A stretch of 6,311 bases of DNA from Promethearchaeota archaeon CR_4 (GTDB taxonomy: Archaea; Asgardarchaeota; Lokiarchaeia; Sigyniarchaeales; CR-4), in NCBI GenBank assembly GCA_001940655.1, contig MBAA01000065.1, positions 6,144-12,454 of the forward strand. Direction: 5' to 3'. Positions 1,352 to 6,311 of the stretch are shown piece by piece. The notes beneath the pieces are model-generated. The model had not been told where the DNA came from and made no database searches. It saw only the letters and a list, made by a program, of their open reading frames with translations. The stretch's first letter is position 1. Each line of letters begins with the position of its first letter. The position numbers and the translations under genes were made by a program.

Positions 1352-1500
1352 TTTCCGATGTGCCTATGGCCGTCCTAAGTAGACAGCTTCACTGTTCCCA
1401 CAGCTTTTGCCTGCAGTACTTGATAGTGAACGGCACAACGCTTAACTTCCGAGTTCGGGACGGGTTCGGGTGTTTTCGGGCGGGCTCGACGTGAGCCTGC
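1352..1500 (-). rRNA. 5S rRNA locus. A canonical core (loop B to helix I 3' strand, 1477..1381) is followed by a 5-nt linker and then the canonical 5' arm (1375..1352), so the order appears circularly permuted.
   Basis: The minus strand reads cacccgaacccgtcccgaactcggaagttaag (1472..1441), the universal 5S helix III/loop C signature with the AA bulge. A loop-E-type AGUA (1420..1417) lies opposite GAA (1397..1395). Helix IV pairs 1416..1411 with 1403..1398, and helix V pairs 1430..1425 with 1393..1388. The ggacggccatagg motif typical of 5S 5' ends sits downstream at 1375..1363. Confidence 0.8.
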
Positions 1501-1541
1501 ATTCCCCGGCGACCTTCGGTAAGGTGTGGAGTCCTGCCCGC

Positions 1542-1549
1542 TATAAAAA
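1542..1549 (-). promoter_or_regulatory. Candidate archaeal TATA box for the 5S transcription unit, with an A-rich BRE-like stretch upstream.
   Basis: The minus strand reads gaacaaaatttttatagcggg. The tttttata element would place a start site near 1517..1520, about 40 nt upstream of the 5S core. This call is motif-based only. Confidence 0.35.
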
Positions 1550-1816
1550 TTTTGTTCTTTCTCAATAGTTCGGACTCTTGTGAATGGAGATTTTTTGCAA
1601 GACCGGTCTGAATAAACTCAGGTGGTATCAATTCGTGGGGTCTAAGCCGAAGCAAGACTAAATTTGGGAGAAAGGGCTAACTCATTTAACTTACGTTTTT
1701 AAAAAGCAAAAAAACAAGGGAAGGTTGAAATTTGAAAAAAAAATCGGCCGAACTTGGTTGAACTTGACAGATTATTTAGTCTATAACACCCGCACAACCC
1801 GAGGTGATTATTCACA

Positions 1817-2269: not shown

Positions 2270-2299
2270 TATAATTAAAGGGGAAAAAGAAAACCGAGA

Positions 2300-2306
2300 A
2301 TTTTTT
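2300..2306 (+). terminator. T7 tract about 30 nt after the stop of the 1817..2269 gene.
   Basis: The sequence is gaaaaccgagaatttttttcag. This is an oligo-T terminator candidate based on the motif alone. Confidence 0.3.
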
Positions 2307-2314
2307 TCAGTTTC

Positions 2315-2639
2315 TTAAGCACGCTCGGCGCTTTCGCCATAGGAATACTCCCATCGTGAAAATTGCACACCCGCTGAGTAATGTTTCGGAGTATCCCGGG
2401 AACCATTGCCATCCGGAGTGTCATCAGGTGGTGCTTCTCCGACCACCGTTATCGTCTAAGGTGCTAATCACTAAATCGGCATAATAATCCCCAACAATTT
2501 CTGCTGCGGTTTCGATGGTTTCATTCGGCTCGTAATCACCAGGTGCCGCTGTAACGCTTGGGGTGTTCCAATATTATATGATCAAGGAAATTCCCATCAA
2601 TAGTGCTAAAGTCAAGCTAAACTTCCAATATCTATGCAT
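2315..2639 (-). pseudogene. Decayed gene for a small secreted protein. A signal peptide is followed by an in-frame TAA, and a frameshift lies further downstream.
   Basis: The minus-strand ATG at 2639 encodes MHRYWKFSLTLALLMGISLII, then TAA (2576..2574). The same frame continues as YWNTPSVTAAPGDYEPNETIETAAEIVGDYYADLVISTLDDNGGRRSTT and stops at 2426..2424. A shifted frame then continues as VVGEAPPDDTPDGNGSRDTPKHYSAGVQFSRWEYSYGESAERA and stops at 2317..2315. The DYEPN..A motif resembles the start of pre-peptidase C-terminal-type domains of secreted proteins. Confidence 0.35.
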
Positions 2640-2871
2640 ATTTGGGCCCTCCATTTTCATTAAATGGTGTAATCTGTTTAAATTGCTACATTAATAGTTC
2701 TCTCCTATTACATTTTAAATTCTTCAATTCATTGCACCTTTTTCCGTCCTTCGTTCCTATTTGCACGATTTAGGAGGACGACTTTTAGGTTAAAGGGAGA
2801 ACGTTGACTAAAGGGGAATACAAGAGAGAGAAAATTAGTGGTGGGAACCTCGTTTGGAGGTTGCACGACCC

Positions 2872-2893
2872 AGGGGGGAGGAGAGGAGGAGGG
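2872..2893 (+). repeat. 22-nt pure homopurine tract containing a perfect 13-nt mirror repeat, ggaggagaggagg (2877..2889).
   Basis: Read directly from the sequence: aggggggaggagaggaggaggg. More purine-only runs lie just upstream (aagagagagaaaa, 2822..2834). The tract sits in a gap with no convincing gene. Confidence 0.9.
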
Positions 2894-3207
2894 CGAAATC
2901 TTAAACAACAGAATTTCGTAAAAAATGGGTCGCAACTAGCTCCCGGCGTCCCCACCAAGTTTCTGATTGCAGCTTTCGGATATAAAAACCTGTTGGTTCC
3001 CCTATCCGCCAATGATAAAATGGATAGATCATAGATGCGAAGTGGTCTGTCTAGGATACAAATTACCATTGTAGGTGGGATTAAATCCTGATGAAATCGC
3101 CTGAGGAGGACGAGAATCCACGATAGGCCCACTATAATTAAAAGCATGTTTGACACTATCTTGAAAATGGAGAACTCAACCCATAAAGGCGCGATCTGGA
3201 TCGAACT

Positions 3208-3450
3208 ATGGACTACATAAGAGCTTTAATCTTCATTCGCTTGAAGCAAGAACAAATGCCGGCATTTCTCACGTTAATTCAGGGCCTACCCCAAGTGAGA
3301 CAATATTACGCGTTGACTGGGGAATTCGATGGATTGCTAGAGGTAGAAACGCGTTCCATCGAGGAGCTCTACACCCTCAACCTCCAATATTTTCAAGGAT
3401 TTAGCGGTTTACAGCACACCAACACGCACATTGTTGTTATGAGAATCTAA
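3208..3450 (+). CDS. Stand-alone RAM domain protein (Lrp/AsnC C-terminal ligand-binding domain with no DNA-binding HTH), 80 aa.
   Basis: The sequence is IRALIFIRLKQEQMPAFLTLIQGLPQVRQYYALTGEFDGLLEVETRSIEELYTL...GLQHTNTHIVV. It matches the beta-alpha-beta-beta-alpha-beta AsnC_trans_reg pattern, including the hallmark (V/L)TGxxD(x)(L/I) segment. At 80 aa the protein is too short to carry an HTH. Confidence 0.85.
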   Translation: MDYIRALIFIRLKQEQMPAFLTLIQGLPQVRQYYALTGEFDGLLEVETRSIEELYTLNLQYFQGFSGLQHTNTHIVVMRI

Positions 3451-3493
3451 GCATGAATTCAGGTGAAAAAAGGGAAAAAAGGAGTCGTAGCGA

Positions 3494-4846
3494 ATGCTAA
3501 TTCAGCTACTTTGTTTGTTCCTCGTCAATTTTTTATTCGGAATTGCGCCGTTATTCGTGAATGAGTTGAAAGAGATATCCGTGTTTAGTCTCTCCTTCTT
3601 TCGATTCGCGGGGTCGGCCATCTTTGAAATCATCATCATCTTTGCAGTGATAGCGTGGTTGTCCCGGAGATTTCGCAAAGCTGGGATTCAGAAGGGTTTC
3701 TTAACACTGGTGCGGCAATCCTTTCGAAATTATTTCAAAGCCCGGAATCCACATTTTCTTAACGGCAAATCACAACTGGGATACCTCGCGTTCTTGGGTT
3801 TTTTGTTGGGGAATATTTCCATTCCTTTTTATTTCCTGAGTTATTTGGAAGCGGGTGTGGTCATGTCCACGATCTTCGTCAATGCCTTGACTTTGATTCT
3901 CATTTCCGCGGTAAATTGGGCCAAAGGGGAAGAACATATGGACCTTCTAAAGATTATCGACCTCACCCTTTTAATTGCCGCAGTGTTCGCCATCGCATAT
4001 GGAAATCAAGGAAAACCTCCGGGTTCTTTGACAATTCTGCCCATTCTCCTCATCGGAATAACAATCGTAGTATATTCAACTTTTCTCATAATGCTCGGGC
4101 GAGACACCTCCCAACAGACAGAACTGGTCGAAGACGTGCGATTTGCTGACCTGCCGAAAACCCCGCAACTTGAGAGAGCAGCCTTATTTCTCCGAGTTAT
4201 GTTAAAATTATTCGGCATACACATATTAGGGGCAGTATTGCTAATCCCGTGGACGTTTTTGTTGTCAGTGGTCACCCCGGCTACTCCCATTGGAATACAT
4301 GCCCAAACTTTTATTACTCAAGACCTCTTCCAGAGCTTCTCACATTTCCTCAATCCTGCAATCTTAGGCCTGATCGTGTTATGCACGACCCTTCCCTATT
4401 TCCTTTTAGTCTTTTCCGCAATTACATGGCCGAAAAACGCGTTAAAACACGAAATTTGGACGTCCGTCTTTACCCTCGTAGATCCTTTAGTGGGCCTCTA
4501 CATCGGCCTCTTCGTCTGGAAGGACAATATTCGGGCAGATTACGTGGCCTTCACAACCATTTTCTTAATTGCGGGGATAGTCATCCGGTATTTCTACGAA
4601 ACGGTGAACGCCCGCCGATTTCTCTTCGTCATTTCATTAAAGCAAAATTATTTTACCCAATTTGTCACGATCCTCCGAAAGATCAAGGAAATCGACCAGT
4701 TCAACGTGGTATTGGGGACTTACGACGTGATCTTGCACCTGACCGTCCGATCAATGGCCCGATTGGGAGAGATCTCGAATCAGATCAATTATTTTCCAGG
4801 CGTTGAGAAAGCCTATTACTCGGTTGAAAAGTTGATGAAAAAATAA
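3494..4846 (+). CDS. DMT superfamily (EamA-like, 5+5 TM) transporter with a C-terminal fused RAM (Lrp/AsnC ligand-binding) domain, 450 aa.
   Basis: An SD-like aaggag (3479..3484) precedes the ATG. About ten hydrophobic helices fall into two halves, each with an EamA-like pattern. The first half has FGIAPLFVNELKE..S..FFRF and ends in LILISAVNWAKGEE. The second half has TTLPYFLLVFSAITW...LVDPLVGLYIGLFVWKDNI. The last ~77 residues, FLFVISLKQNYFTQFVTILRKIKEIDQFNVVLGTYDVILHLTVRSMARLGEISNQINYFPGVEKAYYSV, form a RAM fold paralogous to the two flanking small proteins. Confidence 0.88.
   Translation: MLIQLLCLFLVNFLFGIAPLFVNELKEISVFSLSFFRFAGSAIFEIIIIFAVIAWLSRRFRKAGIQKGFLTLVRQSFRNYFKARNPHFLNGKSQLGYLAFLGFLLGNISIPFYFLSYLEAGVVMSTIFVNALTLILISAVNWAKGEEHMDLLKIIDLTLLIAAVFAIAYGNQGKPPGSLTILPILLIGITIVVYSTFLIMLGRDTSQQTELVEDVRFADLPKTPQLERAALFLRVMLKLFGIHILGAVLLIPWTFLLSVVTPATPIGIHAQTFITQDLFQSFSHFLNPAILGLIVLCTTLPYFLLVFSAITWPKNALKHEIWTSVFTLVDPLVGLYIGLFVWKDNIRADYVAFTTIFLIAGIVIRYFYETVNARRFLFVISLKQNYFTQFVTILRKIKEIDQFNVVLGTYDVILHLTVRSMARLGEISNQINYFPGVEKAYYSVEKLMKK
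4613..4843 (+). other. RAM (AsnC_trans_reg-like) domain segment within the transporter CDS, residues about 374..450.
   Basis: It begins directly after the last TM helix (IAGIVIRYFYETVNARR) and contains the LGTYDVILHL motif, equivalent to LTGEFDGLLEV and VTGEIDGVIEL in the neighbouring genes. Confidence 0.75.
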
Positions 4847-4853
4847 GGATGAC

Positions 4854-5147
4854 ATGACAGTGACTGAAAAAATCCGCGCGTTGTGTTTTGTCTGGCTCGA
4901 ACAGACGAAGTTGCAACCCTTTTTAGATAATTTGAAGAATTTCCACCAAGTAAAACGTTATTATGCGGTGACGGGCGAAATTGATGGCGTTATCGAACTT
5001 GAAGTCGAGCAAATGGGAGACTTATTTGACGTAATTAAAAAGTTAGACTTGATGGAAGGTTTGAAAACCGAAACCCACATCGTCCTCAGGCAATTCGACA
5101 TGAATATTCCCAAATGCATCGAGGAGAATGTGAGTCCCAAGAAGTAG
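4854..5147 (+). CDS. Second stand-alone RAM domain protein, 97 aa, a paralog of the 3208..3450 product.
   Basis: The start lies 7 nt after the transporter stop, with aagga just upstream. The sequence is IRALCFVWLEQTKLQPFLDNLKNFHQVKRYYAVTGEIDGVIELEVEQMGDLFDVIKKLDLMEGLKTETHIVL. By eye it is roughly 40 percent identical to the first RAM protein over about 54 aligned residues. Confidence 0.85.
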   Translation: MTVTEKIRALCFVWLEQTKLQPFLDNLKNFHQVKRYYAVTGEIDGVIELEVEQMGDLFDVIKKLDLMEGLKTETHIVLRQFDMNIPKCIEENVSPKK

Positions 5148-5150
5148 ACA

Positions 5151-6311
5151 TTAAACCAGGGGGAGGTTGATAGTCACCGTTGACCCTTGGTCGAGACCTG
5201 GGGATGCGATACGAATAGATCCCCCATGCATCTCAACTATCCCTTTCGATAAGAACAGTCCGACCCCCGTGGATGGTACGTTTGTTCCGTGCTTAGAATT
5301 ACTCCCAGAGGAGAAAGGACGCCATATATTCTTGAGGTCTTCGGGAGAAAATCCCGCCCCGTGGTCCTGGAAGGAAATCGATGTGGAGTGTACTGTGTTC
5401 TCAGAGGTTATTTCTATTGTGGAACCCGCGGGAGAAAATTTAATCGCGTTGAATAGGATATTGATGAAGACTTGTTCGATTCGTATTTTGTCACAATTAA
5501 TTTCTATGTCCCGTATTTGGTTGTGGATGGAAATTTGACAATTATTTGCATAATAGGTAACGATTTTGATAGCATTGAGGATCAGGTTCTGAAGATGGGT
5601 ATGCTCTTTTTTGAGGACGAGTCTCCCGCCCTCGATCCGCCCGACATCCAAAAACTCCTCTACGATTCGGTTTAGTCGCAGGGTCGAGTTAATTATGCCA
5701 TCAATTTCAGTTTGTCCGACCAATTTACGCAGATCTTTTCCCTCGGTAAAACCTGATTTGAGCAATTCAGCCCACCCGAGGATATGAATTAATGGCGTTT
5801 TTAGCTCATGCGTAGCATACGTTATCATATTGCTTTTAAGTTTTGAAATGTCTGACGCATCCACGTACAATTTCGTGAGCGTGTCCACGTAAGAATTGAA
5901 AAGGGAAAACGTCATTAAAATAATCAGGGCGACATAACCATATTCAGCGAGGTAAATACTCGTGTAAACGCCTGACACAACGAGTATGTCATTTATCCCG
6001 CAGGAAATATAGATTAGGAATGCTACGAGGAATAGACGAGCTTCTTTCCGGTGTTGTCGATAATATCGGAGAATAAAATAGAGAAAATACATCCCTATGA
6101 CTAAATAAACAATGTTTAGAACACTCGATAAAAAACCCCCTTTTACTTCAAAATACGTCAGGTTTAGGTTCGGGGCCAGGGAAATTACCTTAATATTTGG
6201 AGAATTCACTTGAAGACTCCAATCCATTGGTGCTAAGGCAGAGAGAAAGAAGAATGTGAATAAGACGATCGTTAGGGTAAGCACAATTCGTTTTCGGGAG
6301 GCGGAGTTGTA
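5151..6311 (-). CDS. Membrane-bound sensor histidine kinase (multi-TM sensor, DHp/HisKA, HATPase_c). The 5' end possibly lies beyond the right window edge.
   Basis: The H-box is ITYATHELKTPL, the N-box ILFNAIKFSP, the G1 box FQDHGAGF, the F-box-like segment IWRPF and the G2 box GVGLFLSKGIVEMHGG. Four hydrophobic helices precede the DHp with no PAS or HAMP between them. The track start at 6284 is a GTG. The frame stays open upstream to 6311 (..YNSASRKRI-VLTLTIVLF), and the RKR before the first helix looks like a genuine n-region. Confidence 0.88.
   Translation of the reverse strand, partial: YNSASRKRIVLTLTIVLFTFFFLSALAPMDWSLQVNSPNIKVISLAPNLNLTYFEVKGGFLSSVLNIVYLVIGMYFLYFILRYYRQHRKEARLFLVAFLIYISCGINDILVVSGVYTSIYLAEYGYVALIILMTFSLFNSYVDTLTKLYVDASDISKLKSNMITYATHELKTPLIHILGWAELLKSGFTEGKDLRKLVGQTEIDGIINSTLRLNRIVEEFLDVGRIEGGRLVLKKEHTHLQNLILNAIKIVTYYANNCQISIHNQIRDIEINCDKIRIEQVFINILFNAIKFSPAGSTIEITSENTVHSTSISFQDHGAGFSPEDLKNIWRPFSSGSNSKHGTNVPSTGVGLFLSKGIVEMHGGSIRIASPGLDQGSTVTINLPLV

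Follow-up and report, generated by a model that had tools for sequence, protein, structure and literature searches.

In a 6,311-nt stretch of the genome of Promethearchaeota archaeon CR_4 (contig MBAA01000065.1, positions 6,144 to 12,454 of the forward strand; the whole of it is called the window below), three open reading frames (ORFs) of 80, 450, and 97 amino acids follow one another on the plus strand. The first and the third encode stand-alone RAM proteins, referred to as RAM-A and RAM-C, and the second encodes a fusion protein, in which a RAM domain, the sensory module of Lrp-type regulators, follows the last of ten predicted transmembrane (TM) helices of a divergent EamA/DMT-like membrane domain. 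In our estimation the chances are even that these genes constitute a self-contained module of two to three genes, in which a cytoplasmic assembly of RAM domains exerts post-translational control over a secondary transporter with the DMT/EamA fold. More tentatively, and with the scales tipped somewhat against it, we propose that the free RAM proteins are soluble subunits completing composite amino-acid sites with the RAM domain fused to TM10, the resulting hetero-oligomer gating transport directly.

Three RAM Proteins Without a DNA-Binding Domain

A Pfam scan, for which the curated cut-off of the RAM family PF01037 (AsnC_trans_reg) is 25 bits, assigned one RAM domain above cut-off to each of the three proteins (Table 1). 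No helix-turn-helix (HTH) family was matched in any of them at E ≤ 1, and with 80 and 97 amino acids the stand-alone proteins are too small to accommodate an HTH. The NCBIfam regulator models LysM, AsnC, and Lrp aligned by their C-terminal halves only and scored far under their cut-offs. Judged by these profiles, the three proteins are not Lrp-type transcription factors, since the defining HTH is absent. The fold of the tethered copy was checked additionally, while the free copies were judged by sequence profile. In an AlphaFold2 (AF2) model, the tethered RAM domain starts directly after helix 348-372 and shows the ferredoxin-like order beta-alpha-beta-beta-alpha-beta over residues 374-444 (DSSP assignment: strands 374-382, 400-405, 412-418, and 437-444, helices 387-394 and 421-432). 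Foldseek matched it to the stand-alone RAM proteins 2zbc, 2e1a, and 2djw with TM-scores per target of 0.77-0.84. At the junction between TM10 and the RAM domain, residues I364, R365, Y366, and F367 are invariant in the family alignment.

The 450-aa fusion protein of CR_4 is 100% identical to an entry named "hypothetical protein RBG13Loki_1039" of this Asgard (Loki) metagenome-assembled genome, and some other members of the family are annotated automatically as "Lrp/AsnC ligand binding domain-containing protein" or "DMT-like permease". The start codons of all three genes are placed at the same residues as in their homologues. Selection was estimated from the proportions of nonsynonymous (pN) and synonymous (pS) differences to the closest relative, L007 (76% protein identity). 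Values of pN were 0.159 for RAM-A, 0.141 for the fusion gene, and 0.117 for RAM-C, with synonymous sites saturated (pS 0.74-0.80, the upper value being that of RAM-A). This combination of low pN and saturated pS indicates that all three genes are coding and constrained. The most constrained section of the fusion gene is the RAM tail (pN 0.072). Minus-strand ORFs of 50-94 aa within positions 3208-5147 found no support as genes, and they overlap the conserved coding sequence. Nucleotide similarity to L007 starts at window position 3232, and the region upstream is not detectably conserved. RAM-A and the fusion gene are probably co-transcribed, given that they are closely spaced on one strand.

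The original prediction, which had been made from the bare sequence, described three co-oriented genes separated by spacers of 43 and 7 nt, each encoding one RAM domain without an HTH, the middle one at the cytoplasmic C-terminus of a 10-TM protein. The coordinates were reproduced exactly, the C-terminal tail and both small ORFs were assigned to PF01037, and the AF2 helices together with the loop charges described below agree with the predicted topology.

Table 1. Features of the module (upper rows) and of the remaining window; positions refer to the window.
Feature	Position	Strand	Evidence or remark
RAM-A, 80-aa stand-alone RAM protein, A-type clade	3208..3450	+	PF01037, 52.4 bits, E 4.9e-14
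Spacer between RAM-A and fusion gene, 43 nt	3451..3493	+	AGGAG purine run before ATG, read from the sequence
Fusion gene, 450 aa	3494..4846	+	10-TM part and RAM tail
Predicted membrane domain of the fusion protein (residues 1-372), 10 TM helices, divergent EamA/DMT fold	3494..4609	+	AF2 model, Foldseek, membrane-only profile
Tethered RAM (residues 373-450), linker to TM10 of ~5 residues	4610..4846	+	PF01037, 36.2 bits (residues 380-441); DSSP; Foldseek
Spacer between fusion gene and RAM-C, 7 nt	4847..4853	+	Read from the sequence
RAM-C, 97-aa stand-alone RAM protein, C-type clade	4854..5147	+	PF01037, 38.1 bits
Candidate archaeal TATA-like element TATAATTAAAA	3133..3143	+	65-75 nt 5′ of the RAM-A start; by inspection, weak
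Convergent sensor histidine kinase gene	5151..6284	-	HisKA and HATPase_c; weak 7TMR-DISM_7TM membrane part
Match to 5S rRNA, probably part of a divergent gene	1439..1478 (gene probably ~1375-1500)	-	Rfam, 37.6 bits (gathering score 38), E 3e-6
ORF, 88 aa, probably spurious	1389..1655	-	Overlaps the probable 5S rRNA gene
ORF, 169 aa	611..1120	-	Hydrophobic segments
ORF, 150 aa	1817..2269	+	Hydrophobic segments
Region upstream of the module, ~940 nt	2270..3207		

A Divergent Transporter-Like Membrane Domain

The AF2 model of the fusion protein was computed from an alignment of nine family members (predicted local distance difference test score, pLDDT, 81.9; predicted TM-score, pTM, 0.76) and consists of 10 TM helices followed by the RAM domain; the number of TM helices agrees with the hydropathy profile. 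Among the top 50 Foldseek matches in the PDB, every match outside the RAM family was a transporter of the DMT superfamily with a probability of 1.00, namely the CMP-sialic acid transporter (6xbo/6oh3), SLC35B1 (9grz), Vrg4 (5oge), YddG (5i20), LicB (7paf), and PfCRT (6ukj), with TM-scores per target of 0.5-0.65 for the membrane part. Support for two homologous 5-TM repeats in the membrane domain is only indirect and comes from this fold match.

Independent of the RAM tail, which was excluded, a profile of the membrane domain was scored against 1.84 billion representative proteins and found 65 relatives in all, mostly 430-480 aa in length. Among the near-full-length relatives (n = 43), 23 gave a match to PF00892 (EamA; best E 3e-11) and 32 a RAM match. 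The profile aligned nearly full length to P0037, P0043, and P0061 (E 6.7e-26, 1.1e-21, and 2.3e-10, respectively), which themselves scored 33.2, 29.0, and 39.4 bits on EamA (cut-off 28.2 bits), and on the same model the orthologue of Candidatus Lokiarchaeum ossiferum reached 24.8 bits. A wider homologue search with a broad alignment added one korarchaeotal relative, in which the RAM motif was not detectable, and NCBIfam gave a faint EmrE/SMR hint for the fusion protein itself (E 0.47). Taken together, the structure model, the fold matches, and transitive homology identify the membrane part as a divergent EamA/DMT protein. Its polar intramembrane residues are conserved and the domain is under ordinary purifying selection. 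The loops contain 19 lysine and arginine residues on the inner versus 4 on the outer side; by this bias the N- and C-termini, the latter with the RAM tail, face the cytoplasm.

Conservation of the Module Across Genomes

Linkage of the genes was surveyed in 11 independent genomic contexts, the window included (Table 2). A search for related loci with the family profile retrieved a single genome, that of L. ossiferum. A free RAM gene adjoins the fusion gene in 10 of them, and at least two free RAM genes are located within 5 kb in seven. The paralogues belong to two conserved types, A and C, found beside the fusion gene across the Lokiarchaeia and in at least one bacterium. In all eight lokiarchaeial contexts of the window's clade, a RAM-A orthologue lies directly upstream of the fusion gene. 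The C-type gene adjoins the fusion gene downstream in the window, L004, and L007, whereas L001 and L005 carry it on the upstream side and L002 has it at a distance of 2.7 kb downstream. Across the contexts, the order of the module is shuffled between RAM-fusion-RAM, RAM-RAM-fusion, fusion-RAM-RAM, and fusion-RAM. The flanking genes differ in every context, and none of the 11 neighbourhoods contains a full-length Lrp gene. That adjacency persists despite a shuffled order and unrelated flanks argues for selection for the co-expression of a self-contained module and not for inherited synteny. The gene linkage proposed in the original prediction was thus recovered in related genomes with respect to the adjacency of a free RAM gene, while the gene order varies and a second free RAM gene, of the C-type, accompanies the module in 7 of the 11 contexts.

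Table 2. Arrangement of the module in the surveyed genomic contexts (numbers after RAM and fusion give protein lengths in aa).
Context	Arrangement
Window	RAM80-fusion-RAM97
L004 and L007	RAM-fusion-RAM
L001 and L005	RAM-RAM-fusion
L002/L003	RAM-fusion, convergent hybrid kinase, second RAM 2.7 kb downstream
L006 (short contig)	RAM-fusion
L008, cultivated Ca. Lokiarchaeum ossiferum Loki-B35, complete genome	RAM83-fusion454
L010, Ca. Harpocratesius repetitus	fusion-RAM80-RAM94
L009, Spirochaetota metagenome-assembled genome	fusion541-RAM86, 10 nt between
L011	fusion, 72-aa ORF duplicating half of its own tail, true RAM79 3.5 kb downstream

The 72-aa ORF of L011 (positions 6314-6532 of that context, plus strand) overlaps the 3′ end of the fusion gene, and its last ~50 residues almost repeat the last ~50 residues of the RAM tail (...KPEIKIKFEWNSFI...). 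As read from the sequence, part of the tethered domain has been duplicated in tandem, and a free half-copy could be the result.

At the other end of the module in the window, the stop codon of the convergent sensor histidine kinase gene is located 3 nt from that of RAM-C, which means that the two transcripts must overlap or end inside each other. As a conserved partner of the module this kinase was rejected, given that a convergent kinase recurs in L002 only and is absent from the other nine contexts.

Ligand-Site Residues of Tethered and Free Copies

A neighbor-joining tree and identity matrices separated the RAM domains into three clades, namely the tethered copies (T), the A-type, and the C-type. 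Tethered tails are 31-87% identical among themselves and 12-28% identical to the free copies; C-type proteins often end in an F-x-F tail. In the glutamine complex of Grp/ST1022, the amino group of the ligand is held by D102 and its carboxylate by the backbone nitrogen of G99, both in the G-x-x-D loop, and additionally by T132/T134 of the neighbouring dimer, which form the T-x-T of the last strand; these threonines were described as highly conserved in the family (PMC2504300). In a profile built from 14 free RAM proteins, the motifs TGEYDG and TNTH align onto TGDYDM/THTM of FL11 and YGEYDL/TSTM of DM1, both of which are proven amino-acid binders (PMC2995911).

Both half-sites are present in RAM-A (TGEFDG with G38 and D41, and T71-N-T73-H) and in RAM-C (TGEIDG and T-E-T-H). 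The tethered copy retains G-T-Y-D and reads A-Y-Y-S where T-x-T-H is expected. This pattern extends to its close family, in which A-[YHW]-Y-[SC] replaces T-x-T-H in seven of seven tails and the Asp is kept in six of the seven; across the wide family, too, most tethered tails keep the Asp of G-x-x-D. Among the free copies, T-x-T is kept in five of six C-type proteins, and at least the second Thr/Ser in most A-type proteins. Since the tails do not possess T-x-T, each canonical site of a homo-oligomer of tails would be incomplete by one half. Free subunits placed opposite the tail in a hetero-oligomer would, as far as the motifs can tell, supply the missing part.

Proposed Mechanism and Alternatives

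As we picture the mechanism, the RAM domains would form obligate beta-sheet dimers that associate dimer to dimer and hold the ligand between them, each inter-dimer site being composed of G-x-x-D from one side and T-x-T from the other. The tethered copy would contribute G-x-x-D and the free A and C subunits T-x-T, and the ligand sites would be composite. A hetero-oligomer hung from TM10 would be built up or broken down in response to an amino acid inside the cell or to a related small metabolite, and the change in oligomeric state would be passed to this helix, biasing the rocking of the two 5-TM halves. In view of the linker of ~5 residues and the invariant I-R-Y-F junction, association or dissociation of the RAM domains would be expected to act directly on TM10. 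The transporter would then open or lock with the cytoplasmic level of the metabolite, and in this way export would be under feedback control or uptake under trans-inhibition; a feedback-activated amino-acid or metabolite exporter is favoured here, a trans-inhibited uptake system fitting equally well. In some DMT dimers, such as that of Vrg4, TM5 and TM10 reportedly form the dimer interface, and a Vrg4-like dimer of the fusion protein would join the two tails as a T:T dimer and offer a docking place for A/C dimers. Elements of this scheme have precedents among soluble proteins: the stand-alone RAM protein DM1 assembles in vitro with the full-length FL11 into a hetero-octamer, and the balance between dimers and octamers of RAM proteins responds to ligands (PMC2995911).

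Several observations weigh against a gated transporter of this kind. Concerning the membrane part, the fusion protein gave no direct match to EamA, neither in Pfam at E ≤ 1 nor in NCBIfam, so that the EamA/DMT-like character claimed in the original prediction stands by fold and transitive homology and was not borne out by PF00892 itself. Family-profile searches of the PDB sequences yielded RAM matches only and no solved DMT protein, the Foldseek E-values of the DMT matches are modest (1e-3 to 3e-2), and a comparison of the N-terminal and C-terminal half profiles of the membrane domain by hhalign gave a probability of 0.9%, the 5+5 repeat not being detectable by sequence. Concerning the linkage, the closest true free RAM gene of L011 is 3.5 kb away, four of the 11 contexts, L. 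ossiferum among them, lack a C-type gene within 5 kb, and flanking genes in the neighbourhoods provide no consistent clue to a substrate. Concerning the sites, the asymmetry between G-x-x-D and T-x-T is clear in the window's clade only, with distant free copies reading x-S-H, the tail of the Spirochaetota protein resembles its own free partner, and amino-acid binding is absent from some of the archaeal RAM proteins (PMC2995911).

The alternative that survives best, which we nevertheless regard as unlikely, is that the tethered RAM domain acts alone as a T:T homodimer over a transporter dimer, and that the free RAM proteins are co-expressed and work elsewhere, for example in hetero-oligomers with full-length Lrp-type transcription factors (feast/famine regulatory proteins, FFRPs). 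The DM1-FL11 hetero-octamer is indeed the sole documented partnership of stand-alone RAM proteins (PMC2995911), the free copies share just 12-28% identity with the tethered ones, and in several genomes the C-type gene is dispensable or displaced. Unless the genes are tied directly by function, however, it is hard to explain why the adjacency in 10 of the 11 contexts outlasts reshuffling, the turnover of flanks, and the divide between archaea and a bacterium. Moreover, the full-length Lrp partner is not encoded in any of the neighbourhoods, and the tethered copy does not carry the T-x-T half-site that the canonical site of a homo-oligomer requires.

With a still smaller likelihood, the fusion protein might serve as a "transceptor", which senses flux or substrate and captures or releases the free RAM proteins, whose availability to soluble Lrp-type regulators would then determine a transcriptional output. 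Sequestration at the membrane has precedents, as AmtB sequesters GlnK and MalK sequesters MalT. Linkage and half-site complementarity fit this explanation as they fit the gated transporter, stand-alone RAM proteins can join full-length FFRPs, and in 2 of the 11 contexts the module is directly adjoined by a convergent histidine kinase gene. On the other hand, no transcription-factor gene is linked to the module in any context and the kinase is not conserved, the membrane domain is constrained and retains conserved polar intramembrane residues as would a working carrier, and an additional, unobserved partner would be required. Improbable, finally, is a role of the tail and the free RAM proteins as ligand-independent structural or oligomerization scaffolds, which for instance fix a quaternary state without sensing: several RAM proteins of archaea do not respond to amino acids (PMC2995911), ligand-free octamers are possible (PMC2504300), and T-x-T is lost in the tail and kept only in part in the A-type, yet the C-type and several A-type proteins keep the full G, D, and T-x-T set of the binders FL11 and DM1, and the Asp conserved in most tethered tails would be unexplained if nothing were bound.

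Comparison With Known Systems

The proposed carrier with a RAM-based switch can be compared with several characterized systems. In their single-domain, HTH-free build and their size of 80-97 aa, RAM-A and RAM-C resemble the demi-FFRPs DM1 of Pyrococcus horikoshii (2e1a/2z4p), STS042 of Sulfolobus tokodaii (2zbc), and TTHA0845 of Thermus thermophilus (2djw), with which they share the G-x-x-D and T-x-T ligand-contact motifs as well as profile matches, the fold matches having been obtained with the tethered copy. The proposed partners of demi-FFRPs are soluble transcription factors, whereas in CR_4 the conserved neighbour and presumed partner carries its RAM domain on a membrane transporter. The physiological significance of stand-alone RAM proteins "remains unclear" (PMC2995911).

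A genetic link between the same two families, that is, a RAM sensor and an EamA/DMT carrier, exists in bacteria, in which full-length Lrp/AsnC regulators control neighbouring EamA genes, as in the PA2577/PA2576 pair of Pseudomonas aeruginosa (PMC8707732). Another pairing of a regulator with an amino-acid exporter is Lrp-leuE, as cited in PMC7997004. In such pairs control is transcriptional and exerted via the HTH, while the module of CR_4 is HTH-free and carries the sensor covalently on the carrier. From these two properties we infer post-translational control, and by analogy the fusion looks like a "Rosetta-stone" shortcut of the regulator/EamA pairing.

Fusion of a sensory domain to a transport protein, with or without free copies, is known from other families. 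In the K+ channel MthK, an RCK domain tethered to the last TM helix assembles with soluble copies into an oligomeric gating ring, the soluble subunit being the identical domain produced from an internal start. The analogy to MthK, on which the first interpretation of the locus had drawn, holds in that the same domain type is both fused to the last TM helix and encoded as soluble protein(s). It is a loose one, since the RAM fold is unrelated to RCK, a carrier and not a channel is concerned, a ring is here only proposed, and the soluble copies are diverged paralogues (12-28% identity) from separate genes.

In the pairs GlnK-AmtB and SbtB-SbtA, PII trimers that bind ATP, ADP, or 2-oxoglutarate plug the transporter directly. 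Common to these pairs and the module is the gene for a small soluble beta-alpha-beta-beta-alpha-beta sensor beside a transporter gene, thought to act on the cytoplasmic face; in contrast to PII, the sensor belongs to the RAM family and one copy of it is fused to the carrier. The transporter MetNI possesses a C-terminal NIL/ACT-like domain on its ATPase subunit, which mediates trans-inhibition by methionine as a homodimer and has no free paralogous subunits. Like the fusion protein, MetNI thus has a C-terminal ferredoxin-like domain on a transport protein, which in MetNI binds an amino acid for feedback control, but the fusion protein would be a secondary carrier instead of the ATPase of a primary transporter, the domain is from another family, and free paralogues are present. 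The solved DMT transporters YddG (5i20), the SLC35 members (6oh3, 5oge, 9grz), and LicB (7paf) show the same 10-TM architecture and overall fold; they have neither a RAM nor any other C-terminal ligand-binding domain, and no significant direct sequence match to the fusion protein.

No published description of a combination of EamA and RAM domains was found in the literature searched, and a survey of Asgard transporters lists "uncharacterized DMT families" only, without mention of a RAM fusion (PMC7997004). If the proposal is correct, the Lrp sensory module would have its first non-transcriptional role, in which it switches a membrane carrier directly and post-translationally, and the carrier would be the first DMT transporter with allosteric gating. 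The proposal would also assign a concrete and testable function to stand-alone RAM proteins, the role of which has been unclear for two decades, and would introduce a regulatory mechanism into the DMT/EamA superfamily, to which the eukaryotic SLC35 carriers belong as well as amino-acid exporters that are of interest to biotechnology. The compact format of two to three genes and the presence of the module in the cultivated L. ossiferum and in a bacterium make a heterologous reconstitution realistic. With 65 representatives among 1.84 billion proteins the family is small, so that any wider importance would be conceptual and not ecological.

Other Features of the Window and Neighbouring Genes

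Just downstream of the module of Ca. H. repetitus (positions 7313-9079 of that context, minus strand), a 588-aa protein of the Arf/Ras/Roc family of small GTPases with a zinc ribbon is encoded, a typical "eukaryotic signature" gene of Asgard archaea that is not obviously related to the module. In the ~940 nt of the window that precede the module, no ORF is convincing and neither a tRNA nor an Rfam family was matched; that this stretch represents a degraded neighbour gene was rejected, as tblastn gave no match to the upstream proteins of the relatives' modules. The 169-aa and the 150-aa ORF (Table 1) have no significant family match, the former with sub-threshold hints to PCI and TM0026 only. 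Further upstream, 40 nt match positions 20-59 of the Rfam 5S rRNA model almost perfectly, with a score just below the gathering score. The flanks of this match look 5S-like (AGUACUGCAGG...CUGUGGGAAC) and lie outside the model alignment, and the 131-nt candidate stretch folds no better than shuffled sequences (z 0.54). Judged by its sequence, the region is probably a divergent 5S rRNA gene, which would make the overlapping 88-aa ORF probably spurious.

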